Shown here: positions 5,086 through 63,785 of the stretch, piece after piece
Layout of the letters: each line of letters opens with the position of its first letter
How positions within the stretch are numbered: position 1 is the stretch's first letter
Translations under genes and position numbers: made by a program
The notes under the pieces: model-generated
Databases searched by the model: none
What the model was told of the DNA's origin: nothing
The model's input: the letters and a program-made list of their open reading frames with translations, nothing else
Origin: Anaerolineae bacterium
GTDB taxonomy: Bacteria; Chloroflexota; Anaerolineae; Epilineales; Epilineaceae
NCBI GenBank assembly: GCA_038913135.1
Contig: JBCLES010000005.1
Coordinates: 12,216 to 76,215, forward strand
Length of the DNA stretch: 64,000 nt
Reading direction: 5' to 3'

Positions 5086-5598
5086 GTGCCGTTGACACAC
5101 ATCGACGCCGAAGGCAAGGCGTCGATGGTCGACATCGGAGATAAGCCGATCAGCGCACGCTCAGCGGTGGCTCGCGGGAAAATCCGGATGTTGCCCGCGA
5201 CAGTGGCCGCCATTACCTCGGGGACGGCTCCGAAGGGCGATGTTCTCGCGGCGGCCCGCCTGGCCGGAATTCAAGCCGCCAAATCGACTTCCGATTTGAT
5301 CCCACTGTGCCACATAGTGCCGCTCGACTCGGTGCGCGTCGACATTGAACATACATCGAACGACGGCTTCCTAGTCGTTGCCCGAGTGACGTGCACAGGC
5401 AGGACCGGAGTCGAGATGGAGGCCTTGACGGCCGTTTCCGTAGCGCTTCTCACGCTATACGACATGGCCAAGTCGATGGACGAGTCGATGGTTATCGAGC
5501 GAATCGAGCTTGTCGAGAAAGTGGGGGGTGTCCGCGGTGATTGGCGGCGAGACGACTTGGGCGGCGACTCATCGGATGTGAGCAGCCCGAATGGCTGA
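5086..5598 (+). CDS. moaC: cyclic pyranopterin monophosphate synthase MoaC
   Basis: [66 protein letters not shown]. Full-length MoaC pattern; GTG start. Confidence 0.9.
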
Positions 5599-6682
5599 GC
5601 TGAGCTTTCAAACGCGGGATGGTCTGACCGTTCCTGCGGAGATCTCGACTTGGCGGAGTTCTGCCGGAGAGACGCTCGAGTGCACTTCGCTTCCATTCGA
5701 CCCTGACTCGATCGAGAGTTCGGAGCGGTCGATTTGGCGATATCGAGCCATGCTTCCGGTTCCAGACAACGTAGCGCCGGTCACATTGGGCGAAGGGTGG
5801 ACGCCACTCGTCGAGGCGTCGCTGGTCGGCATTCCGATCAAGGCAAAGCTGGAGTTCGTCCAACCGACCGCATCTTATAAGGATCGCGGCTCCGCCCTGC
5901 TCGCGGCGATGCTCCAGCATTCCGGTGTGAAGAATGCCGTCGAGGACAGTTCAGGCAACGCCGCGGCAAGCCTTGCGGCATATGCTTCGCGAATAAATAT
6001 GCCGATCAAGCTCTTTGTTCCCGGCGAAACGGCCGGCGGTGTAAGGGTTCGCCAGGCGATCGCATACGGCGCGGAGGTCGATGCCGCGGCCACGACGCGC
6101 AGTGAAGCCGCGGCGCGAGCGCAGGCGGCGATCTCAGGCTCGACCGCCTACGCGAGTCATGTCTACAGCCCGTACTTTCTCGCGGGCCAGATGACTCTGG
6201 CTTGGGAGATTTGGGAGGACTGCGGCGTGCCGAACAGTATTATTGTTCCCGTGGGACACGGCATTCTTCTTTTGGGCCTGCACCGCGGCTTCAAGGCTCT
6301 GCTAGCGGCCGGCTTGATCGATACCATGCCACGGCTTTTCGGCGTTCAGTCCAGAGACTGCGGTCCGATCTACCATGCTTACATGCGCGGTGCGAAGAAG
6401 ACCTTTCCCTCTGTGTCGGGCAATTCCATCGCCACAAGCATCTCAGTCGACGATCCTCCTCGTGGCCGCGACGTTCTTGCGGCCGTGCGCGAGACGGGCG
6501 GTACGATGATCAGTGTCAACGATTCGGAGATCCGCAGGGGAATGTCGCTGGTGGCCAATCTCGGGTGGTACGTCGAGCCGGCGTCCGCAGCTGCGGTTGC
6601 GGGAGTCGTCAAGCTGGACAAGCTGCTTCCGGTCGACGGTACGGTGGTCGTTCCGCTGACGGGGAGCGGTCTCAAGCTATAA
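5591..6682 (+). CDS. threonine synthase-like PLP-dependent enzyme (Trp-synthase beta fold)
   Basis: [31 protein letters not shown] (PLP Lys)..DSSGNAA motifs. Overlaps the moaC stop by 8 nt. Confidence 0.65.
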
Positions 6683-6762: not shown

Positions 6763-7821
6763 GTGATCCGGAGCAAAGTCGGCAAGACATCACAGGAGAT
6801 CCGTCTCACTCAGATGGCGGCCTGTGCAGGGTGAGCATCCAAGATGGGCCCTGAGGCCTTGGCGCACGTGATGCGCCCATTATTGGACCTGTTTCCCCTA
6901 CAAGATTATCCCGATCTTCTTCTCGGGATCGAAGGCGCCGATGACGCTGCAGTCTGGCGAATTTCGGACGACTTGGCGTTGGTGGTGACAACGGATTTCT
7001 TCACCCCGATCGTCGACGACCCATATGACTTCGGTGCTATAGGCGCGGCCAACGCAATGAGTGACGTCTTCGCCATGGGCGGGCAGGTCATACTCGCTCT
7101 GAACCTTCTGGCGCTGCCTGAGAATCTTGATCCTGAAGTTGGCGCGAGAATTGTGCTCGGCGGCGCCGAGACTGTTCGAAGTGCGGGCGGTGTGGTTGCC
7201 GGGGGGCACAGTGTGAACGATCCGGAGCCGAAATATGGCCTGGCCGTAGTCGGCCGCGTTCATCCGGATCGGATTCTCAGAAAGTCAGGCGCACGTATCG
7301 GCGACCGGCTGGTTCTGACTAAGCCGCTCGGCACCGGCCTCATCTCGACCGCACTTAAGCGCGATCTTGCGGATCCCTCTGACGTCAGCGCGGCAATCGC
7401 CTCGATGCGCGCCTTGAACGCCGAAGCCGGTCGCTTGGCCGTCGAGCACGGCGCTTCGGCTGCCACCGACATAACGGGCTTTGGGCTGATAGGCCACGCG
7501 CTAGAGATCGCCGGCCGGAGCGAGATGCGACTGTGCTTCGACATCGATAGCATTCCGCTTCTCGCCGGAGCGCTCACAGCGGCTCTGGCGGACTGCGCGC
7601 CGGGGGGGACCGCCCGCAATCGTGAGGCATACTCGGCCGAGGTAACTGGACTCGACCTGCTTGCCGACGGATGGTCCGACGTGCTATTCGACCCCCAGAC
7701 ATCGGGCGGACTCCTGATCGCTCTTCCACCGGCGAAGGTCGACGGATTCCTCGACGACTTCGGCGGCGAAGCTACGTTGATCGGAGAGGTCGCAGCCGGC
7801 TCGGGCATCGAGCTCCGATGA
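6763..7821 (+). CDS. selD: selenide, water dikinase SelD (selenophosphate synthetase), predicted selenocysteine at UGA 6832-6834
   Basis: Track ORF 6844..7821 is clearly SelD (DDAAV..TTDFFTPIVDDPYDFG..NAMSDVFAMGG..GGHSVND..LTKPLGTG). The same frame is open upstream to TAG 6751-6753. GTG 6763 follows AGGAG (6752-6756). The extension reads MIRSKVGKTSQEIRLTQMAACAG-U-ASKMGPEAL, matching E. coli [21 protein letters not shown] with U at the Cys17 position and K at Lys20. Confidence 0.8.
6846..6877 (+). promoter_or_regulatory. candidate bacterial SECIS region (two small hairpins downstream of the selD UGA)
   Basis: Hairpin 1 at 6846-6859: GGGCC/loop CUGA/GGCCU, starting 12 nt after the UGA. Hairpin 2 at 6861-6877: GGCGCA/loop CGUGA/UGCGCC, starting 27 nt after. 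Both lie in the distance range expected for SelB-binding stem-loops. Which one is functional, if either, is unknown. Confidence 0.4.
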
Positions 7822-28802: not shown

Positions 28803-30257
28803 GTGGAGACCAACAAGATCGAACAGGCCAGGCTCAGCGGGGCCGACATGCCTGAAGTGATGGACACGATCCTTCAGACGATCGGGGAGACACCGCTGAT
28901 TCGCTTGCAGAACATCGGAACCGGTGTCGTTCCCGAAGTTCTTGTCAAGGTCGAATTCTTCAATCCGGGGGGCTCCGTCAAGGATCGAATCGGGGTGTCG
29001 ATCCTCGACGACTACGAACGCCGCGGCATTCTGAAGCCCGGCGGCACCATTGTTGAGTCGACTTCGGGCAACACCGGGGTCGGGCTTGCGATCGCGGCTG
29101 CCCTGCGCGGCTACAACGCCATCTTCGTTATGCCCGACAAGATGTCGGACGAGAAGATCAGATTGCTGCGCGCCTTCGGAGCGCGCGTCGTCATCACACC
29201 GACGGCGGTCGAGCCGGACGATCCGCGATCGTATTACTCCGTGGCCAAGCGGCTTGTCGAAGAGACGCCCAACGCCGTTCTGGCGAATCAGTATCACAAT
29301 CCCGCTAACCCTGAAGCACATTATCTATCGACCGGGCCTGAGATATGGCGCCAAACCTCGGGCCACGTCACGCACTTCATCTGCTGCCTCGGGACCGGCG
29401 GGACAATCAGCGGCGTCGGCCGTTACCTGAAAGAGAAGAATCCCCTCATTCAAATCGTGGGCGTCGATCCGGTCGGCTCCGTCTTACACGACTACTTCTA
29501 CACCGGCGTCATGCCTCCGGCCCAATCCTACAAAGTCGAAGGCATCGGCGAAGACTTCCTGCCTTCGACTACCGACTTCAGCGTGGTTGACGACGTTGTT
29601 CAGGTGATGGATGGCGAGTCGTTCAGGATGGCGCGTCGGCTCGTGCGTGAAGAGGGCATGTTCGTCGGCGGATCTTGCGGCAGTGCGCTCGCAGGCGCCC
29701 TCAACTACATTGCGGATCACGAGCTTGGTCCTGAAGCCGTTGTCGTCGTCTTGCTCCCCGACTCCGGGAGCCGTTATTTGAGCAAGCTTTTCGACGATGA
29801 TTGGATGCGTGAGAACGGCTTCCTCACAGCTGGTCGCGTCAGCGGCTTCGTATCGGATGTCATCGCCGCTCGCGGACATCGCGACGTTATCAGCGTCCTA
29901 CCATCGGCATCGCCGCGCGACGTCGTCGCGCTGATGAAGGCCAATGGGATCTCGGAGCTGCCGGTCCTCGGTGAGGACGGCGACGTACGCGGGATAGTGC
30001 GCGAAATCGACCTTCTTTCCAGGATGCTCGACGCGCCGTCGAACGGGTCCGCGAGCTTGGACGTCTCGCATGCAACTATCGAGCCGATAATCAGCAATCG
30101 AGTCGCGGTCGTTCAGCCGGGTACGACGCTCAGCGTGCTCGGTAAGATCTTCAGTGAGACCGGGCTTGTGGTCGTGCGCGACGAAGGGCGTGTATCAGAC
30201 GTTCTGACCAAGATCGATCTTATCGACTATCTGACAGACAATTTGGAAGGCCGCTGA
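28803..30257 (+). CDS. cystathionine beta-synthase / cysteine synthase-type PLP enzyme with C-terminal CBS-domain pair
   Basis: GETPLIRL..FFNPGGSVKDRIG (PLP Lys)..TSGNTGVGLA..GTGGTISG, followed by two CBS domains (VISVLPSASPRDVVALMKANGISELPVL; VAVVQPGTTLSVLGKIF). Confidence 0.88.
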   Translation: METNKIEQARLSGADMPEVMDTILQTIGETPLIRLQNIGTGVVPEVLVKVEFFNPGGSVKDRIGVSILDDYERRGILKPGGTIVESTSGNTGVGLAIAAALRGYNAIFVMPDKMSDEKIRLLRAFGARVVITPTAVEPDDPRSYYSVAKRLVEETPNAVLANQYHNPANPEAHYLSTGPEIWRQTSGHVTHFICCLGTGGTISGVGRYLKEKNPLIQIVGVDPVGSVLHDYFYTGVMPPAQSYKVEGIGEDFLPSTTDFSVVDDVVQVMDGESFRMARRLVREEGMFVGGSCGSALAGALNYIADHELGPEAVVVVLLPDSGSRYLSKLFDDDWMRENGFLTAGRVSGFVSDVIAARGHRDVISVLPSASPRDVVALMKANGISELPVLGEDGDVRGIVREIDLLSRMLDAPSNGSASLDVSHATIEPIISNRVAVVQPGTTLSVLGKIFSETGLVVVRDEGRVSDVLTKIDLIDYLTDNLEGR

Positions 30258-31090
30258 TGAGCGGTCCCCACGCAGCGGAATTGGTCGACCTCCGGATCAT
30301 CCCGCTGGAGCGCATCACACCGCATGAGGACCATGACGAGCGCCGTATCGCGGCACTCGCCGAACGGATCCAGCGCGACGGTGTTTTACGGAATCCGCCA
30401 ATTGTCGCGCCGCTCGACGAGCATAATTTCGTCGTTTTGGACGGGGCTAATCGCACGTCGGCACTTCGCTTTCTCGATTATCCGCACGCCGTCGTTCAGG
30501 TAGTCGATTACTCAGCCGTCGAACTCTCCACCTGGAATCATCTGGTGATCGATCTTCAAGGCTACGAGCTCGCTTCGGGTATCGCGGGATTGGATGAGGT
30601 GCAACTAGTTCCGTCCAGCAAAGAACCGTCCGGGGAAGACCTGAATAGTGGATCAGCGCTCGGTTCCGTGGTGTTGCCGGACGGTCGAATCCTCGACTTG
30701 ATCGGCGAAGGTACGCTTCTCGAACGTGTCGAATTGCTTCGAAGCGTGGTCTCGATCTACAATGGGCGCTCTGACATTCACCGCGTTCAGGGTGCCGACA
30801 TCGGATCAGCATGCGCGGACCATGCGCAGGTAGCGGGCATCATCGTTTTCCCGCGTTTCACTCCGGCTGACGTGCTTTCGATAGTCAGCGCCGGATCGTT
30901 CCTCCCCTCGGGCATCTCCAGGCATGTCATCCCCGGTCGGGCCCTGCGCATCAACTACACTCTTGCCGATCTGGCAGCCGATATCGACACCGACGAGAAG
31001 AATCGGTCACTTCAAACCTGGTTCCGGCGCAAGCAACAGGCAAGGGAGATCCGCTACTATGAAGAGCCGACCATCCTCTTCGACGAGTAA
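30257..31090 (+). CDS. ParB/sulfiredoxin-fold protein, possible free serine kinase (SerK/SbnI-like)
   Basis: IPLERITPHEDHDERRI....LRNPPIV....VVLDGANRTSAL is the ParB/Srx N-terminal domain pattern. ATGA overlap with the PLP enzyme stop. Functional call is inference only. Confidence 0.5.
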   Translation: MSGPHAAELVDLRIIPLERITPHEDHDERRIAALAERIQRDGVLRNPPIVAPLDEHNFVVLDGANRTSALRFLDYPHAVVQVVDYSAVELSTWNHLVIDLQGYELASGIAGLDEVQLVPSSKEPSGEDLNSGSALGSVVLPDGRILDLIGEGTLLERVELLRSVVSIYNGRSDIHRVQGADIGSACADHAQVAGIIVFPRFTPADVLSIVSAGSFLPSGISRHVIPGRALRINYTLADLAADIDTDEKNRSLQTWFRRKQQAREIRYYEEPTILFDE

Positions 31091-31123
31091 AGCGCTGCAG
31101 CGCGAAGCGAGATCAAAAAGACC

Positions 31124-31474
31124 ATGAGCGATCAACCAGCCGGCATGACGACGAGCGAAGCGAGCACGGTCGAAGAAGCGGCAATCGAATCTGAGATCCG
31201 TGAAGCGCTGCGCCAGGTCGTCGATCCGGAGATCAACATCGATATCGTCTCACTCGGGCTGATTCGAGAGATCGTAAGGGACGGCACTGGCACCGAGGTG
31301 CGGATGATTCTGACGACACCGTTTTGCCCATACGCCGGAACGCTCGTTCAACAGACAAAGGACATGACCCGCTCCGTTACGGGCGGCGATGTTCGGGTTG
31401 TCTTGCTGGACGAGCCCGTGTGGTCGCCCGAGCTGATGGAAGGCGGCGATTGGTCGGAGTGGGGGCTCGTCTAG
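31124..31474 (+). CDS. DUF59/SufT-like Fe-S assembly protein
   Basis: IREALRQVVDPEINIDIVSLGLIREI....MILTTPFCPYAG, the classic DUF59 (MIP18/SufT) pattern. Confidence 0.85.
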   Translation: MSDQPAGMTTSEASTVEEAAIESEIREALRQVVDPEINIDIVSLGLIREIVRDGTGTEVRMILTTPFCPYAGTLVQQTKDMTRSVTGGDVRVVLLDEPVWSPELMEGGDWSEWGLV

Positions 31475-31491: not shown

Positions 31492-34400
31492 TCAACGCAA
31501 CTCTGTGGCGTCGCTGGTCTCCGTGATGTCGGATTCCGACCACGGCAGGTAGATTGTGGCCCGTTCGGTCGGCACCGCCGTCATTGCTGTCACCGTAGGA
31601 CTAGGGGTCGACGTTGTGGGCGGCGGCGTCACTCCGCCGGGCGTCGAAGTGGGAACTACGGTCGAAGTGGCCGTGGGAAACCCTCTCGGCTCCGTCGAAA
31701 CGCTGACGAAATGGCCATCGCGCGTGATCGTGCGCGCCGTCATTCTGCGCAGCGCCTCGATGTCGATCCCACCCGGGAACTCCGACTCATGGACGCTCCA
31801 TGCGCCGCTAGCGCCTACGGAAACGTTGATCGACGTTCTGGGACGGCCGACTGAATCGAGGAGGACCGTGATCGTCGTATGTGGCGGACCGACGCCGTGG
31901 ACCAGGTTCGCTTCATAGTCGAGGGCTATCGATAGCGGAGGGATAAGGAGCGCGGCGACGGAGGCTGCAAAGGGATCGCCGGCGGGATGTAAGCTCAAGG
32001 TTTGTCCCGGCAGATTGATCCCCGTGGCCGGATCGTCGCTCAGAAGAACTGTTTCGAACCCTCCGAGAGTGTCCGTCCGCGTCGACGAGCGCGCGATCTC
32101 TTCGCCGGAGTTCGAGAGCTTGAGCGCATACGCTTCAAGCGGCGCGGCGATGCCGCGAACGATTCCAGCCGCGATCTCGATCTCCAATCGGGCGATGGTC
32201 GCGCGCACCCAAGTTCGATGCCCTCGCGGGTCATCGGCGCTGGCATCGACAATCGTGCCTGCGGGCAGAGCACCTATTCCCGGCAGTTGAACGGCGAAGG
32301 ATCCATCGGAGGCTGCAGGGGCGCCGATCGGAGTCCACCGTTCTACGCCCGGCTCTTGGACTGTCACGACGACGGGCGCACCCGGAACCGCCCTGCCGAA
32401 TACGCTTCGTGTGGCAGCCGAGATGGTGGTTGAGATCGGTGCTACCACCGTCAAGGCCATCTCGGTCACACCTGACGACTCACTGCTCCATTCCGCTCTG
32501 ACAGTGTCACCGCTCGCCAGCCTGTAAGAGGAGCTTTCCGGCAGCACTATCGCGAAGCGTCCATCGGAATCGGCCATTGAAACCGCCGAGGCGACTGAGA
32601 TGCCTTCGCGCTCCGCGCCGATATGGACGTTGACTCCGGGACCCGCAAAGCCGGAAATGGAGTGTCCTCGAGACTGAACCGCCAATAGAGGCATTCGACG
32701 TCCGATCTCGAACCGATCGCCATCCGGAGAGGTGTAGCGGGCTTGCACAATATCGCCGCCGGACACGTCGAAACGCTCGCCGACGGCCGTCTCGTACTCC
32801 GGCGTGCCCGTGCGTTCAACGCTCGCTTCGATTCGACCGCCGCCAAGTCCCCGCTCGTCGATCGCCGTGACGCTGACCTCGCCTTCACGTGGCGCCTCAC
32901 CGAACACCAGGTCGCGCATCGGATCGGCGTCAACGCTGATTGACGGAATGGTAACGCTCAACTCGCGCCCGGCCGACTCGATACGGAGCCTGTTCCCCGG
33001 TAGAAGGCGAACCGCTGACCCTTCGCGACTGCGGAGGGTGAGTTCGAAAGCACCTGATAGGTCGGCAGCGCCTTCGGCAAAACCTCTGAGATCGTCCTCC
33101 GAATCTAGGGCAGCGACGATACGCTCGCCCGGCCGAGCGTGCCCCTTGACTATTCCCAGCACGATGTCGAGAGAGAGCCGCCACGCTGAGTCGTGTTCTA
33201 AGAACGTGACACCGCCCAACTTCACGGCAGCGTCGACGTGATCTCCGGCGCTTATCTCCTCACCGGCGAAGACGCCTGCGAAAGTGCCGTCCATGGCCGA
33301 GACCAGCTCGATTTCGGCTCTCGGCGCTTCGGGGGCGCCGAGTTTCAGGCGAACTGTGCGACCCGGAGCCGTCACGCCTCGGATACCGTTCGTCTCCGGG
33401 TTGGCGTCGACGATGAGGGGAGGGGTCTCGACCTCCGTCCAGCCCGAGTCGACGCCAACCCGGAGAAGGTCGCCCGCCAATATTGGAACGGGAAGGCCAA
33501 AGGCGTCTCGCAAATCGAGTAGCCAATCGCAGCGAGCACAACCGGCCACCGCGAATCCGGCGGTCGGCGGCACCGCGGACTGTGCTTGGCCGATCGTGAA
33601 GCCTTGACGCACAAGCTCAGCTTCGATCCGCTGACCGCCGATTCCGGCTCCGGCGACGTCGGAGCCGCCGAGTTCGACCTCGATGTCAGGCACGACCCAG
33701 GGCAACGCCACTTTCGCCCGCTCGCTCAGGTCCATTGCTACGAAGCCTGAATCACCCGCCTCGATGCCTTCCGGCGGCGAGAGCGCGAACCTGCCTGAAG
33801 CGTCGGTCGGAATGTGCCAAGGAGTCCAGCCCTCGGCGCTTCGAATTCCTACTTCGACGTGCCAGTCGGCGAGGGCTGATCCCGAAATGCGACCCCGTTC
33901 CGGATCGACGTCCACGACCAGGCTGGGAATCACAAACGAAAGCGGTTCGGCCCGCCCGAGCCACGCGATGAGGAGATCGTCGCCCGCGCGCAGCCTGAAC
34001 CTTTCGCCGTCCCTGCGCCTCAAAGAAAGCTCGAAACGGCCCAGCGCGTCGGCGGTACCGCTCGCATCGGCGACCGAACGTCCACTTTCGTCGCGCACGG
34101 TCCCCGCGACCGTCGCGCCCGGCGGAGACAGGCCGGAAAGGCGATCAGCTCCAAGTGTCGCAGTGACGCGCTCGGCAAGGGCCCGGCTCCTGAATGCCAT
34201 GACGGCACTCTTAGCGACGATCTCCACAGGCGTCTCAGGGCGAAGGTCGATGACATCCGTCATGTCGAGGGTGAAGACGCCGGCCTCAGCTACGTTGAAA
34301 CTGCTAGTCGCCGCTGTTCCATCCGGTCTCCGCGCACGTGCGATGTACCGCCCGGAGCGATCGATTGTGCCGACCACGGTATCGTCCGCAGGCACCACGC

Positions 34401-34818
34401 GAGCGCTGGCATCAGGCGCGACGCCGGCCGCGATCGATCGGCCGTCCACGGTTATCGTCAATCGCTCACCCGCGCGGATTGGATGGACGGCGCCGTCCGC
34501 GCCGCGGACTACCACATCGATCGCTGCGTCGCCGACACGACTGGCCTCGCCTTCGGCTATTGGAGCGTGCCGGCCGACGCCGCCGACGAAGATGCCCACG
34601 CTGACTCCCGCTGTCGACGTCACTCGGACGGTGGGAGTGCCGATGAGAACGTCGGCCGTCGGCGAAACTGCCTGCCCGGAAACCACCTTTGCGCTCAGGA
34701 TCGCGATCGGCGCGAATGCAGCCGCGAGCAGCATCTGCGCGATGATCCGCGCGTCCGCAGCGGGCAAGCGAAGCCGACGTCTTTGCGATTTCACACGTGC
34801 ATTATCCCAGTTCGTCAA
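31492..34818 (-). CDS. large secreted repeat protein (>=8 uncharacterised ~90-110-aa modules), Pro/Thr-rich C-terminal linker
   Basis: N-terminal signal-anchor RRRLRLPAADARIIAQMLLAAAFAPIAILSA. Recurring module such as RLRAGDDLLIAWLGRAEPLSFVIPSLVVDVDPERGRISG / LLPGNRLRIESAGRELSVTIPSISVDADPMRDLVFG / ILAGDLLRVGVDSGWTEVETPPLIVDANPETNGIRG. TTG start; GTG 34794 is an alternative. Confidence 0.7.
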   Translation of the reverse strand: MTNWDNARVKSQRRRLRLPAADARIIAQMLLAAAFAPIAILSAKVVSGQAVSPTADVLIGTPTVRVTSTAGVSVGIFVGGVGRHAPIAEGEASRVGDAAIDVVVRGADGAVHPIRAGERLTITVDGRSIAAGVAPDASARVVPADDTVVGTIDRSGRYIARARRPDGTAATSSFNVAEAGVFTLDMTDVIDLRPETPVEIVAKSAVMAFRSRALAERVTATLGADRLSGLSPPGATVAGTVRDESGRSVADASGTADALGRFELSLRRRDGERFRLRAGDDLLIAWLGRAEPLSFVIPSLVVDVDPERGRISGSALADWHVEVGIRSAEGWTPWHIPTDASGRFALSPPEGIEAGDSGFVAMDLSERAKVALPWVVPDIEVELGGSDVAGAGIGGQRIEAELVRQGFTIGQAQSAVPPTAGFAVAGCARCDWLLDLRDAFGLPVPILAGDLLRVGVDSGWTEVETPPLIVDANPETNGIRGVTAPGRTVRLKLGAPEAPRAEIELVSAMDGTFAGVFAGEEISAGDHVDAAVKLGGVTFLEHDSAWRLSLDIVLGIVKGHARPGERIVAALDSEDDLRGFAEGAADLSGAFELTLRSREGSAVRLLPGNRLRIESAGRELSVTIPSISVDADPMRDLVFGEAPREGEVSVTAIDERGLGGGRIEASVERTGTPEYETAVGERFDVSGGDIVQARYTSPDGDRFEIGRRMPLLAVQSRGHSISGFAGPGVNVHIGAEREGISVASAVSMADSDGRFAIVLPESSSYRLASGDTVRAEWSSESSGVTEMALTVVAPISTTISAATRSVFGRAVPGAPVVVTVQEPGVERWTPIGAPAASDGSFAVQLPGIGALPAGTIVDASADDPRGHRTWVRATIARLEIEIAAGIVRGIAAPLEAYALKLSNSGEEIARSSTRTDTLGGFETVLLSDDPATGINLPGQTLSLHPAGDPFAASVAALLIPPLSIALDYEANLVHGVGPPHTTITVLLDSVGRPRTSINVSVGASGAWSVHESEFPGGIDIEALRRMTARTITRDGHFVSVSTEPRGFPTATSTVVPTSTPGGVTPPPTTSTPSPTVTAMTAVPTERATIYLPWSESDITETSDATELR

Positions 34819-60967: not shown

Positions 60968-61041
60968 GGTAGCGGGGGCAGGACTCGAACCTGCGACCTT
61001 CGGGTTATGAGCCCGACGAGCTGCCTCTGCTCCACCCCGCA
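60968..61041 (-). tRNA. tRNA-fMet (CAT), initiator
   Basis: Minus strand UGCGGGG-UG-GAGC..; anticodon loop CUCAUAA. Three G:C pairs (GGG/CCC) close the anticodon stem and positions 1:72 are unpaired (U.U). T-loop UUCGAGU. The 3' end reads ACC then U. Confidence 0.88.
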
Positions 61042-61101
61042 TCGAGGAACGGGAAGTATACGGGCCGCTAAGGGTTGGTCAAGCTCAGGCAACACGCAGC
61101 C

Positions 61102-61623
61102 TCACGCCATTTTTCGGGAAGCGTTCGGCTCGATGTACTTGCGCCAGCGCTCGTCGCCTTCGCTGATCGCGACGAAGGCCACGGCGACATAACGGGGCGG
61201 GCAAGGGGTTGAGCGGAGCTGCATCCCGGCTTGTGCCGGCGTCCGTCCGCCCTTCCTAAGATTGCAGCGCAGGCAAGCCGCGACGAGATTTTGCCACGTT
61301 CGCCGTCCGCCGTGTGAGCGCGGCACAACATGGTCGATAGTGAGCTCGTTTCGGGCGGTTGACGCTCCGCAATACTGGCAAGCGTAACCGTCCCGAGCGA
61401 GGATCCCGCGACGCGTGACCGGGAATGGGAATCGATACGGCACGCGCACATAGGCCACTAGTCGGATGACAGTCGGACGCGGCAACGAAAGGGATTCGGA
61501 GCTTATCCGACCCTCGCGCGCTTCGATCAGCTGCGCTTTGTCCTTTATCAGCAACACGATCGCACGCCGTTCAGAAACGACGTTCAACGGCGCGAATGAG
61601 GCGTTGAGGACCAGAACCGACAT
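61102..61623 (-). CDS. HNH endonuclease (COG1403-type, widely conserved small form)
   Basis: VLVLNASFAPLNVV... N-terminal domain, then CQYCG....LTIDHVVPRSHGG..TWQNLVAACLRCNLRKG, the HNH/zinc-ribbon motif. Confidence 0.88.
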   Translation of the reverse strand: MSVLVLNASFAPLNVVSERRAIVLLIKDKAQLIEAREGRISSESLSLPRPTVIRLVAYVRVPYRFPFPVTRRGILARDGYACQYCGASTARNELTIDHVVPRSHGGRRTWQNLVAACLRCNLRKGGRTPAQAGMQLRSTPCPPRYVAVAFVAISEGDERWRKYIEPNASRKMA

Positions 61624-61730
61624 CGCTCACGGTCTCCACGATGTAGATAACGCCCTTACGTCCCAAGGGCGTGTACTTCGATGATGACGCGCGAAAGTAT
61701 AGCGTTCTGATCGGGCCGTACAACGAACAA

Positions 61731-61759
61731 CGCCGCCACCAGAAATGCTGGCGGCGGCG
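61731..61759 (-). terminator. hairpin downstream of the last array tRNA (candidate terminator of the tRNA array)
   Basis: 12-bp stem with one A.C mismatch (61731-61742 pairs with 61748-61759), 5-nt loop. On the minus strand it is followed by TTGTTCGTTG. Lies 35 nt past the tRNA-Leu 3' end. Confidence 0.4.
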
Positions 61760-61793
61760 GTCGACTGAGGTGCTCAAAGTAACCGGTGCAGAA

Positions 61794-61880
61794 TGGTGCC
61801 GAGGGTGGGACTCGAACCCACACGGGTATAACCCCACGCGAGTTTGAGTCGCGCGCGTCTGCCAGTTCCGCCACCTCGGC
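61794..61880 (-). tRNA. tRNA-Leu (CAA)
   Basis: GCCGAGG acceptor, anticodon stem CGCGA/UCGCG, loop CUCAAAC, long variable arm (class II), T-loop UUCGAGU. CCA is encoded. Confidence 0.92.
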
Positions 61881-61927
61881 CGATTGTGAATGGCGATCGG
61901 CGCCGCAAGTCCTGCGGCATCGACGTA

Positions 61928-61999
61928 AGCCCACGGGCGGGATTGAACCGCCGACCTCGTTCTTACCAAGAACGCGCTCTACCACTGAGCTACGTGGGC
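61928..61999 (-). tRNA. tRNA-Thr (GGT)
   Basis: GCCCACG-UA-GCUC-AGUGGUA-GAGC; anticodon stem CGUUC/GAACG, loop UUGGUAA; T-loop UUCAAUC. CCA not encoded. Confidence 0.9.
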
Positions 62000-62036
62000 A
62001 GTGCGGTGCTGCCGGATACTCAAAACGGCACCACCA

Positions 62037-62114
<78 letters not shown>

Positions 62115-62157
62115 AAACGCATACGTGACACCCCCCTTGCAGACGTTGGTGTCACAG

Positions 62158-62231
<74 letters not shown>

Positions 62232-62372
62232 TCGAATCTTCGAACACTAAACCGAATAAAGTGGACAAGAGCGAACACAGACTCCGGCTGAGTTTCCAGC
62301 CGAATGGGCACTGGACTTCGACGAGCGTTCCGAATACCGAACTATCTGATGCCAACCGCCGGTCCATCTTAA

Positions 62373-62449
<77 letters not shown>

Positions 62450-62571
62450 TTTTTCCGCTCCGCCTGCATGTAGCTGTGTCGTTCTCAAGCTGTGCCGTAG
62501 TTTAGCCGTGTTGTGTTGTCGTGCCATGAAACTGTGCCGCAAAGATCAGATTGGCGTCGATCCTACGCTTC

Positions 62572-62645
<74 letters not shown>

Positions 62646-62683
62646 ATGCCGCTCTAGGATCCGGTCGCTGTCACGATCTCCGA

Positions 62684-62756
<73 letters not shown>

Positions 62757-62803
62757 GCTACTTCTGCATCACGCACCCTAGTCAAAACCGATGCGTCCGC
62801 GAG

Positions 62804-62877
62804 GGAGACCAACGGGGCTCGAACCCGCGACCTCCTGATCCACAATCAGGTGCTCTGCCAACTGAGCTATGATCTCC
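62804..62877 (-). tRNA. tRNA-His (GTG) with encoded G-1
   Basis: G(-1) precedes the GAGAUCA acceptor and faces C73; anticodon stem CCUGA/UCAGG, loop UUGUGGA; T-loop UUCGAGC. Confidence 0.9.
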
Positions 62878-62883
62878 GCGAAG

Positions 62884-62957
62884 TGGGCGATCCAGGATTT
62901 GAACCTGGGACCTCTCCCTTATCAGGGGAGTGCTCTAACCAACTGAGCTAATCGCCC
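62884..62957 (-). tRNA. tRNA-Ile (GAT)
   Basis: GGGCGAU acceptor; anticodon stem CUCCC/GGGAG, loop CUGAUAA; T-loop UUCAAAU. Lies only 6 nt from tRNA-His. Confidence 0.92.
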
Positions 62958-62968
62958 TAACGCCTAGG

Positions 62969-63041
62969 CTCCACCGACTGGACTCGAACCAGTAACCCTC
63001 CGGTTAACAGCCGGATGCTCTGCCAATTGAGCTACGGTGGA
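62969..63041 (-). tRNA. tRNA-Asn (GTT)
   Basis: UCCACCG acceptor; anticodon stem UCCGG/CCGGA, loop CUGUUAA; discriminator G73; T-loop UUCGAGU. Confidence 0.92.
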
Positions 63042-63084
63042 AGGTGCGTGGCCACGTCGTCTCTGGAACGTGTGGCCACACGAG

Positions 63085-63157
63085 TGCCGAGGCCCAGACT
63101 TGAACTGGGGACTCCCTGATTTTCAGTCAAGTGCTCTACCAACTGAGCTACCTCGGC
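63085..63157 (-). tRNA. tRNA-Phe (GAA)
   Basis: GCCGAGG acceptor; anticodon stem CUUGA/UCAGG, loop CUGAAAA; T-loop UUCAAGU. Confidence 0.92.
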
Positions 63158-63160
63158 CCA

Positions 63161-63231
63161 AGGCCACGGCCGGAATCGAACCGGCGATGAGGGTTTTGCA
63201 GACCCTTGCCTTGCCACTTGGCTACGTGGCC
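63161..63231 (-). tRNA. tRNA-Cys (GCA)
   Basis: GGCCACG acceptor, U73 discriminator, A13.A22-type D-stem; anticodon stem AGGGU/ACCCU, loop CUGCAAA. Lies 3 nt from tRNA-Phe. Confidence 0.92.
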
Positions 63232-63236
63232 GGGAG

Positions 63237-63324
63237 CGGAGAGGGAGGGATTCGAACCCTCGACGGGCTTGCGCCCGCAACGGCTTAGCAGGCCGCTCCA
63301 TTACCAGGCTATGGTAACCTCCCC
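63237..63324 (-). tRNA. tRNA-Ser (GCT)
   Basis: GGGGAGG acceptor (G3.U70), 3-bp D-stem; anticodon stem GCGGC/GCCGU, loop CUGCUAA; 18-nt variable arm (GCGGGC/GCCCGU); T-loop UUCGAAU. Lies 5 nt from tRNA-Cys. Confidence 0.88.
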
Positions 63325-63351
63325 ACGATCTTCTCTTGTTAAGGTCACTGA

Positions 63352-63425
63352 TGGCTGGGGGACAGGGACTCGAACCCCGACCTACTGATCCAGAGTCAGT
63401 TGTACTACCGTTATACTATCCCCCA
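63352..63425 (-). tRNA. tRNA-Gln (CTG)
   Basis: UGGGGGA acceptor (U1:A72), G73; anticodon stem ACUGA/UCAGU, loop CUCUGGA. CCA is encoded. Confidence 0.92.
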
Positions 63426-63456
63426 AAAAAATCGCGGCTAGCCGAAGGTTGGCCGC
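63426..63456 (-). terminator. canonical intrinsic terminator inside the tRNA array (between tRNA-Glu and tRNA-Gln)
   Basis: Minus strand: 10-bp stem (63456-63447 pairs with 63434-63443, two G.U pairs), UUC triloop, then GAU plus a U run (7 T, the last being tRNA-Gln nucleotide 1). Confidence 0.6.
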
Positions 63457-63459
63457 AAG

Positions 63460-63532
63460 TAGCCCCTACGGGATTCGAACCCGTGTCTCCGCCTTGAGAG
63501 GGCGGTATCCTAGGCCTCTAGACGAAGGGGCC
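63460..63532 (-). tRNA. tRNA-Glu (CTC)
   Basis: GGCCCCU-UC-GUCU-AGAGGCCUAGG..., very similar to the E. coli tRNA-Glu scaffold; anticodon stem CCGCC/GGCGG, loop CUCUCAA. Positions 1:72 read G.U. Confidence 0.9.
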
Positions 63533-63575
63533 AAGACCTGACGATCCAACATGTTGGCCCGCGCCAAGGCCGGAG

Positions 63576-63603
63576 ATTCTAATGCGCGACCCGAGAGTGT
63601 CAA
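63576..63603 (-). promoter_or_regulatory. near-consensus sigma-70-type promoter inside the array, upstream of tRNA-Glu
   Basis: Minus strand TTGACA (63603-63598), 16-nt spacer, TAGAAT (63581-63576). A 43-nt leader follows, containing the 12-bp palindrome CCAACATGTTGG, before tRNA-Glu +1. Confidence 0.6.
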
Positions 63604-63623
63604 AGCTGCCGGGTCGCGGCAGG

Positions 63624-63697
63624 TGGCGGCGGTTGGACTTGAACCAACGACCTAGCGATTATGAGCCGCTCGCTCTGACCACCTGAGCTACGCCGCC
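63624..63697 (-). tRNA. tRNA-Met (CAT), elongator type (tRNA-Ile2/lysidine not excluded)
   Basis: GGCGGCG acceptor fully paired; anticodon stem AGCGG/UCGCU, loop CUCAUAA. Lacks the initiator GGG/CCC feature. The 3' end reads ACC then U. Confidence 0.85.
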
Positions 63698-63713
63698 ATG
63701 TGAAGCAATCATA

Positions 63714-63785
63714 TACCCCCGGCAGGACTCGAACCTGCGCACCCGGCTCCGGAGGCCGGTGCTCTATCCTCTGAGCTACGGGGGC
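63714..63785 (-). tRNA. tRNA-Arg (CCG)
   Basis: GCCCCCG acceptor (1:72 reads G.U); anticodon stem CCGGC/GCCGG, loop CUCCGGA; T-loop UUCGAGU. First gene of the array. Confidence 0.9.

Follow-up and report, generated by a model that had tools for sequence, protein, structure and literature searches.

A candidate free L-serine kinase encoded beside a cystathionine β-synthase-type gene in an Anaerolineae bacterium points to an unannotated bacterial clade of SerK/SbnI-type proteins

What is the role of a ParB/sulfiredoxin (Srx)-fold protein whose gene overlaps that of a pyridoxal phosphate (PLP) enzyme of the cystathionine β-synthase (CBS) type? The question is raised by a 64,000-nucleotide (nt) stretch of DNA from an Anaerolineae bacterium (GenBank assembly GCA_038913135.1, contig JBCLES010000005.1, positions 12,216 to 76,215), which was analysed as a whole and is called the window here. 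Three genes follow one another on its forward strand, encoding a CBS-type enzyme of 484 residues (28803..30257, GTG start), a protein of 277 residues (30257..31090) and a DUF59 (FeS_assembly_P) protein of 116 residues (31124..31474). The original prediction, made from the sequence alone, was that the 277-residue protein is a serine kinase that makes O-phospho-L-serine (OPS) for an OPS-dependent sulfhydrylase, with the DUF59 protein acting in iron-sulfur (Fe-S) cluster assembly. The kinase part of this proposal is well supported by the results described below, whereas the roles proposed for the two partners are not. By far the best reading of the 277-residue protein, on the basis of homology and gene context, is that it is a free L-serine kinase producing OPS, an assignment that we consider likely.

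The 277-residue protein contains the motifs PHEDHDERR at residues 22-30 and VVLDGANRTSAL at residues 59-70. Pfam analysis gave no helix-turn-helix (HTH) and only a weak, sub-threshold match to ParB_N (E = 0.026), and the top NCBIfam matches are SbnI (NF033589, 1e-18) and SerK (NF053625, 1e-9). A PDB sequence search aligned the protein end to end with both SbnI and SerK; a family profile built from 45 members matched SbnI at 5e-29, across positions 10-274 of 277, and SerK at 9e-12, with no canonical ParB below E = 0.01 among the PDB sequences. The AlphaFold 2 model predicted from the family alignment (pLDDT, the predicted local distance difference test score, of 90.5) was compared with the PDB using Foldseek, where its nine best matches are all SbnI or SerK structures (E 1e-17 to 1e-14, target-normalised template modelling (TM) scores of 0.68-0.82, ~240-270 aligned columns); ParB, Noc and Srx align over ~80 N-terminal residues only. 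The protein is thus composed of a ParB/Srx-fold N-terminal domain and a SerK/SbnI-specific C-terminal domain, and the absence of an HTH behind the former, which had been noted by eye, is borne out by Pfam and Foldseek. A canonical ParB or Noc, a nuclease or a CTP switch was ruled out by the fold, the profile and the lack of an HTH (Noc TIGR04285, 17 bits versus 315).

The conservation of catalytic residues is consistent with the kinase assignment. E24 aligns with SerK E30, for which structures of the E30A and E30Q mutants exist in the PDB, and with SbnI E20; D62 aligns with SbnI D58 and SerK D69. The passage of PMC9641203 that cites Verstraete 2018 states that the kinase activity of SbnI needs Glu20 and Asp58. 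Of 267 family members, a set that takes in distant 50%-identity representatives as well as fusion proteins, 265-266 retain H23, E24, D62, G63 and R66 (E24 in 265; D62, G63 and R66 in 266 each). The predicted relationship to SerK and SbnI extends over the full length in both profile and structure comparisons, with the catalytic Glu and Asp kept.

With sequence identities of 20-21% to SbnI and 18% to SerK, the window protein is as distant from each of these two as they are from one another, and therefore represents a third clade. A word-indexed search returned 1653 proteins, the few named ones among them being called hypothetical or 'ParB N-terminal domain-containing', and an exhaustive profile search returned 1862 clusters (50% identity) at E<=1e-3 and 444 at E<=1e-30. 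Members of the family occur in at least 580 species-level genomes. The hosts are mostly Chloroflexota (Anaerolineae, Thermoflexus, Ardenticatenales, Caldilineae), together with some metagenome-assembled genomes (MAGs) labelled as Comamonadaceae/beta-proteobacteria, Eisenbacteria and others. The paper on SerK reported that clear homologues are absent from bacteria (Makino et al.), and we found no description of the present family in the searchable literature. A large bacterial third clade of SerK/SbnI-type candidate kinases, so far unannotated, is most likely on these data, and the earlier expectation that such proteins are not normally annotated in bacteria is confirmed by their names, which are hypothetical or ParB-like only.

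The genetic context of the family was examined in 80 kinase-centred loci (numbered with the prefix L), the neighbours being located with tblastn probes and precomputed gene calls; greedy calling of the longest open reading frames (ORFs) hid CBS and gamma-lyase genes because of antisense and wrong-frame shadow ORFs at this GC content. A full-length CBS-type gene, ending between -166 and +3 nt from the kinase start, is present in 16-18 of the 80 loci. Given this recurrence, the pairing is not a matter of chance, and the two genes are conserved neighbours, as had been anticipated. A set of ThiS, CysM-like and ThiF-rhodanese genes lies within ~2.5 kb of the kinase gene in some loci, being complete in 8 and partial in 5 of the 80. 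TrpB2, a fold-type-II PLP enzyme, adjoins the kinase in 10/80 loci, and a group-II PLP decarboxylase gene lies directly 3' of it in 4/80. TrpB2 enzymes are reported to be OPS-dependent (Busch 2014).

The clusters containing ThiS resemble a characterised OPS-dependent system. In L085 and L086 the precomputed gene calls give the order aspartate kinase (AspK), homoserine dehydrogenase (HomDH), Asd::JAB, SerK-like, ThiS, DUF59, PALP and ThiF-rhodanese, and in L084 the order CBS, SerK-like, ThiS::DUF59 fusion, PALP and ThiF-rhodanese. The short PALP (CysM-like) partner is 42% identical to CysM of Mycobacterium tuberculosis and has a Lys at the position of CysM Arg220, a residue that reportedly has a role in OPS binding. 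This loop was read from an ungapped BLASTP block (LKHMETAIVP versus LRNMDEGFVP), the MAFFT gap being misplaced there. In the M. tuberculosis Mec/CysO/CysM/MoeZ pathway, CysM joins O-phosphoserine to the CysO thiocarboxylate (PMC3227635); because their gene set is that of this OPS-dependent pathway, the CysO clusters of the kinase family are themselves tied to OPS.

Fusion proteins point in the same direction. In at least five clusters (P0188, P0236, P0244, P0247 and P0253; loci L081, L089 and L090) a phosphoglycerate dehydrogenase (SerA) core is fused to the kinase domain (TIGR01327, 338-382 bits, model positions 1 to ~310), such that the SerK-like domain replaces the usual C-terminal regulatory domains, and in one cluster (P0152, L082) a JAB/desampylase domain is fused to a SerK-like domain. 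The contigs encoding SerA::SerK fusions are mostly too short for context, the informative ones being L081, where a TrpB2 gene lies directly 5' of the fusion, and L089, where a class-V aminotransferase gene precedes it. On the kinase tree TrpB2 occurs in two distant clades, CBS at three or more positions and CysO/CysM at three; since the partner types are interleaved in this way, the associations do not reflect a single inherited accident.

Several further features of these loci were recorded. P0212 and P0240 have N-terminal extensions of ~190-250 residues with no family match. Directly 5' of the SerK-like gene, L027 (4079-4450) and L048 (5618-5992) each encode a stand-alone CBS-pair (Bateman) protein that lacks a catalytic domain. 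The SerK-like gene and the group-II PLP decarboxylase gene (PF00282) form a two-gene unit at L091 (9001-11414) and also in L010, L015 and L027; the best curated match of the decarboxylase is diaminobutyrate (DABA) decarboxylase, far under its cutoff, and through this pair phosphoserine might be decarboxylated to phosphoethanolamine. Complete Mec(JAB)/CysO/CysM-like/MoeZ-like clusters are present in Chloroflexota MAGs and metagenomes (L085, 983-11361; L006, L021, L047, L133, L160 and L167), in contrast to a 2022 review in which this type of CysM is confined to actinobacteria. L085 encodes its JAB domain as a fusion with aspartate-semialdehyde dehydrogenase (Asd), behind the aspartate kinase and homoserine dehydrogenase genes.

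In the window, the proposed translational coupling of the CBS and kinase genes stands in that stop and start codons do overlap, but not in the 4-nt ATGA form that had been described. The junction reads GCTGATGAGC, with the TGA at 30255-30257 and the ATG at 30257-30259 having 1 nt in common (TGATG, 30255..30259, +; direct sequence reading and ORF coordinates), and a Shine-Dalgarno-like run, GGAAGG, lies 8 nt 5' of the kinase ATG. A 4-nt form of the overlap is present in the relative L087. The DUF59 gene (PF01883, E = 3e-16; conserved cysteine motif TTPFCPYAG) starts 34 nt beyond the final base of the stop codon of the kinase gene, as had been noted. Because the genes on both sides, MurJ upstream (divergent) and an ORF of 1108 codons downstream (convergent), run on the opposite strand, the trio is a self-contained three-gene operon. 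Trio-type MAGs include GCA_964651245.1 and GCA_016710785.1, and trio-type relatives have in common the synteny TrmB, MurJ, trio, polyprenyl synthase and FMN_dh. An Rfam search, whose sole matches were tRNAs, gave no known RNA element upstream of the operon, and a scan for promoter and terminator consensus sequences at the operon gave none above chance. The 1108-residue product (31492-34818, -) has a high content of Ala, Gly, Val, Ser and Thr and a Thr/Pro-rich C-terminal stretch, and resembles large proteins that are secreted or exposed at the surface; the position of its gene is not conserved in the relatives L087 and L088.

The 484-residue enzyme combines a fold-type-II catalytic domain with a C-terminal Bateman module. 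ORF and Pfam analyses (PALP, E = 1e-80, and two CBS motifs) agree with the earlier identification of its SVKDR (Schiff-base Lys60) and TSGNTG (87-92) motifs and two CBS domains, as they do with that of PHEDHDERR in the kinase candidate. It passes the CBS model TIGR01137 marginally (517.4 bits versus a cutoff of 510.25), and its best PDB match, which extends along the whole protein and takes in the Bateman module, is the M. tuberculosis CBS Rv1077 (1.5e-114), with catalytic domains that are 54% identical. In a neighbour-joining tree the kinase-linked CBS enzymes form one clade that is sister to Rv1077, an enzyme that makes cystathionine from serine and homocysteine and not from O-acetylserine and homocysteine (PMC9232105). 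The loop equivalent to that of CysM Arg220 is EGIGEDF in the window enzyme and EGVGEDF in Rv1077, i.e. acidic and with no insertion, whereas the CysM-like partners have EGL-K-HME, with a Lys and a 3-residue insertion, aligned to ALRNMDE of CysM. As this loop has no basic residue, an OPS signature of the CysM type was ruled out for the window CBS.

The second-best PDB match is 9k2p, a cysteate synthase of the CapA type (630 bits versus a cutoff of 600), and CapA-type enzymes act in a pathway turning L-phosphoserine into sulfonolipids (PMC11211663); it is therefore probable that the wider CBS clade includes users of OPS. With the catalytic domains alone, the window enzyme scores 462 bits on the CBS model TIGR01137 and 402 on the CapA model NF053679, the corresponding values for Rv1077 being 555 and 304, which places the window enzyme between the two reference proteins. 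The window PLP enzyme is best read as a genuine homocysteine-using CBS, and its dependence on O-phosphoserine appears unlikely.

Reciprocal sampling from the CBS side is consistent with this assignment. Among 80 metagenomic loci encoding relatives 51-65% identical to the window CBS, a SerK-like gene lies next door in only 7 of the 67 with enough downstream sequence, and about eight are linked to the CysM/JAB/ThiS/ThiF-rhodanese cluster without a kinase. The commonest neighbour, adjacent in 21/80 loci, is a cystathionine gamma-lyase-family gene (Cys/Met-metabolism PLP enzyme, PF01053; 519 bits in L137), which in most cases lies 18-126 nt downstream on the same strand. L117 has the gamma-lyase-family gene, ThiS, CBS, SerK, CysM and JAB all together. 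The 24 kinase-linked and 16 lyase-linked CBS enzymes that were compared have the same NQYHNP and (V/I)EGIGEDF motifs, and the nine columns that discriminate between them are all conservative, none being basic. H165, R324 and the likenesses to CapA/9k2p were rejected as marks of kinase-linked CBS enzymes; lyase-linked enzymes have them too, and they are therefore uninformative with respect to the substrate. The alignments thus give no sign of a substrate switch between the two groups, and being next to a kinase does not by itself make a CBS an OPS enzyme.

The assignment of the DUF59 protein to Fe-S cluster assembly finds no direct support, with the protein scoring 61 bits against the 143-bit cutoff of the SUF-associated SufT equivalog TIGR02945. 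Its orthologues are not linked to suf genes, and instead lie between CysO (ThiS-like) and CysM-like genes or are fused to a ThiS-like protein, an arrangement that ties DUF59 to sulfur-carrier chemistry. In L084 (7071-7655) DUF59 is fused in frame right after the Gly-Gly of the CysO-like ThiS, and the two are separate adjacent genes in L085 (8430-9174) and L086; the window DUF59 is 53-56% identical to that of L085 and to the L084 fusion. Among trio-type loci DUF59 identity is unusually high at 67-77%, versus 45-53% for the kinase. These observations suggest a place for DUF59 within the CysO sulfur-carrier system, in which the ThiS::DUF59 fusion may be cut by the JAB protease.

OPS is an activated form of serine used by phosphoserine-dependent PLP enzymes. 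In the reading that we favour, the candidate kinase would phosphorylate L-serine to OPS, with ATP as the probable phosphate donor, given that SbnI, rather than SerK, is the closer relative of the protein. The translationally coupled, Bateman-regulated CBS would condense homocysteine and serine to cystathionine in reverse transsulfuration, and DUF59 would be a member of the CysO sulfur-carrier machinery, as in relatives. The trio would then be a cysteine-supply operon that unites reverse transsulfuration with a phosphoserine route, possibly a reduced form of larger clusters such as those in L084 and L117. CysM, CysO (ThiS), MoeZ (ThiF-rhodanese), JAB, TrpB2, SerA and gamma-lyase were searched for in the 64-kb window and none was found, so the OPS consumer is probably encoded elsewhere in the genome; we assume a CysM-type OPS sulfhydrylase, as clustered with the kinase in related genomes. 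Taken as a whole, and as judged from sequence and gene context, this reading seems to us somewhat more probable than its competitors together, with the kinase function being its firmest part.

Five observations weigh against it. The 277-residue protein is far under the equivalog cutoffs of both characterised relatives (67.7 versus 350 bits for SbnI NF033589; 37.9 versus 380 for SerK NF053625), and for this reason it is regarded not as an equivalog of either, but as belonging to a separate third clade. In the DGxHR motif, the His gives way to N65 in the window protein and, across 267 family members, to Asn in 214 and Thr in 47, with His in only 2. About half of the 80 kinase-centred loci have no recognisable OPS-related neighbour. 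In the window and in other trio-type loci, the CBS is the only possible OPS consumer near the kinase. Finally, the tight coupling of kinase and CBS, which recurs at several positions of the tree, would find a simpler explanation in a CBS that used OPS itself.

The last two points lead to the alternative that survives best, though we judge it improbable, namely that the kinase hands OPS to its coupled CBS-type partner, with homocysteine, sulfide, sulfite or protein-bound sulfur, possibly carried on DUF59, as the nucleophile, in an ATP-driven entry to cysteine. This would account for the stop/start overlap and the retention of the pair, and for the fact that the CBS is the sole fold-type-II PLP β-replacement candidate near the kinase in trio-type loci and in the window. 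Moreover, the CysM-like and TrpB2 partners are from OPS-using families (the fourth partner class being the PLP decarboxylase), the CBS clade includes the CapA-type cysteate synthase, on whose model the window domain scores ~98 bits above Rv1077, and OPS was not among the substrates tried on Rv1077 (PMC9232105). On the other hand, the acidic EGIGEDF loop is like that of the serine-dependent Rv1077 rather than that of CysM or its Lys-containing relatives, the lyase is a more frequent neighbour than the kinase when viewed from the CBS side, and the kinase- and lyase-linked enzymes do not differ in their motifs or by any basic residue. A CysM-like enzyme is also encoded in L084, L012, L022 and L117, where it would be enough as an OPS sink. 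The broader form of the proposal, that the Bateman-type CBS, perhaps as a whole clade, takes OPS and works as an ATP-driven cystathionine or cysteine synthase that bypasses serine acetyltransferase, with DUF59 as a CysO-like sulfur carrier, is similarly doubtful. The earlier designation of the PLP enzyme as an OPS-dependent sulfhydrylase is therefore not upheld, given its grouping with the serine-dependent Rv1077, the lack of an Arg220-type basic residue or insertion and its more frequent linkage to the lyase; the original prediction had itself named a canonical CBS as the result that would speak against it, and these findings together come close to that result.

A different possibility, which we consider very unlikely, is that the SerK-like protein runs in the serine-forming direction (OPS + ADP/AMP to Ser + ATP/ADP), replacing SerB and feeding serine to the CBS, in analogy to the DUF1015 protein SerBK. 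The SerA-core::SerK fusions, one of which follows a class-V aminotransferase, do resemble a SerC-SerA-SerB arrangement with the kinase in the SerB slot, the serine-dependent CBS next door would use the product, and the case that serB can be replaced by a protein of SbnI-like fold (DUF1015) is made in a GapMind 2026 preprint. The same preprint, however, quotes an equilibrium constant of ~4e-4, making the reverse reaction thermodynamically unfavourable. Furthermore, the CysM-like and TrpB2 neighbours consume OPS rather than serine, the combination of TrpB2 and SerA::SerK in L081 fits OPS supply, and both characterised relatives, SbnI and SerK, work as kinases. That the 277-residue protein is no serine kinase at all, but a ParB-like nucleotide switch or regulator or else a kinase for threonine, homoserine or D-serine, has an equally slim chance: SbnI is bifunctional, regulating transcription as well as acting as a kinase, the motif His is changed to Asn or Thr and half of the loci lack an informative neighbour, but the protein lacks an HTH or other DNA-binding domain, the invariance of the catalytic Glu and Asp is unexpected for a pure switch, and the informative partners act on serine-derived substrates (three fold-type-II β-replacement enzymes, and SerA on the OPS pathway).

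The favoured reading, in which a free serine kinase supplies OPS, can be set against the systems that it most resembles. SbnI, the ATP-dependent enzyme of the staphyloferrin B pathway of Staphylococcus aureus and S. pseudintermedius, makes OPS for the fold-type-II PLP enzyme SbnA. It is the closest relative both by profile and by fold (Foldseek 9e-17, TM 0.82), and has in common with the window protein the catalytic Glu of the HE motif, the Asp of the DG motif, Arg66, W-x-H, G-x-T-R and the C-terminal helix. The window protein differs in having DGANR in place of DGVHR and in not being encoded in a siderophore cluster, nothing about it points to heme sensing or DNA binding, and the partners of its family (CBS, CysM-like, TrpB2, PLP decarboxylase and SerA) are unlike that of SbnI. 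The ADP-dependent SerK of Thermococcus kodakarensis (TK0378), which supplies OPS for cysteine synthesis (Makino et al.), has the same two-domain fold (Foldseek 1e-15), a conserved E30 and a shared C-terminal TRHV(I/L)P motif, but is archaeal, whereas the window family is bacterial.

Relatives of the kinase family are encoded in clusters with JAB (Mec-like), ThiS (CysO-like), CysM-like and ThiF-rhodanese (MoeZ-like) proteins, in parallel with M. tuberculosis; the window itself, unlike that pathway, has none of CysO, CysM, MoeZ or JAB. To our knowledge the CysO operon of M. tuberculosis has neither a dedicated serine kinase nor a DUF59 gene. The heme-less, S-adenosylmethionine-activated Rv1077 has the same Bateman architecture and E-G-(I/V)-G-E-D-F loop as the window enzyme, although it is not encoded beside a kinase and scores lower on the cysteate synthase model. 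The OPS-taking TrpB2, which lies beside the kinase family in other loci, including L081, has no counterpart in the window. The DUF1015 'SerBK' protein (GapMind 2026 preprint) is a remote structural relative of SbnI that is encoded next to serA and proposed to interconvert serine and OPS, which parallels the SerA::SerK fusions; DUF1015 is nonetheless a different family, whereas the window protein is related to SbnI and SerK directly, at the sequence level.

Elsewhere in the window a SelD gene (6814-7821, +; TIGR00476, 334 bits versus a cutoff of 125) has a reading frame that runs upstream of the called ATG through an in-frame TGA (6832-6834), with IRLTQMAACAG before it and ASKMGPEAL after it. 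Because this TGA is at the catalytic Cys/Sec (selenocysteine) position, SelD is itself a selenoprotein and the organism uses selenocysteine, as had been proposed. The operon lies 22 kb away from the selD gene, which has no apparent link to the PLP enzyme. Directly 5' of it lies a gene for a threonine synthase-like PLP enzyme (5591-6682, +), which is below all curated ThrC cutoffs (best 211 versus 301 bits). An array of 18 tRNA genes (60968-63785, -) comprises Met (two), Leu, Thr, Pro (two), Val, Gly, Ala, His, Ile, Asn, Phe, Cys, Ser, Gln, Glu and Arg, with most gaps <150 nt and one of ~750 nt; no tRNA-Sec is among the 18.

Free serine kinases have so far been known from two narrow settings, hyperthermophilic archaea (SerK) and a staphylococcal siderophore cluster (SbnI). 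If the assignment of the present family is correct, bacteria would commonly use OPS, formed directly from serine, as a currency of activated serine. The family would then name an OPS source for CysO/CysM-type cysteine synthesis outside actinobacteria and would offer a physiological reason why TrpB2 prefers OPS. Gaps in the cysteine and serine pathways that are reconstructed automatically would be filled as well.

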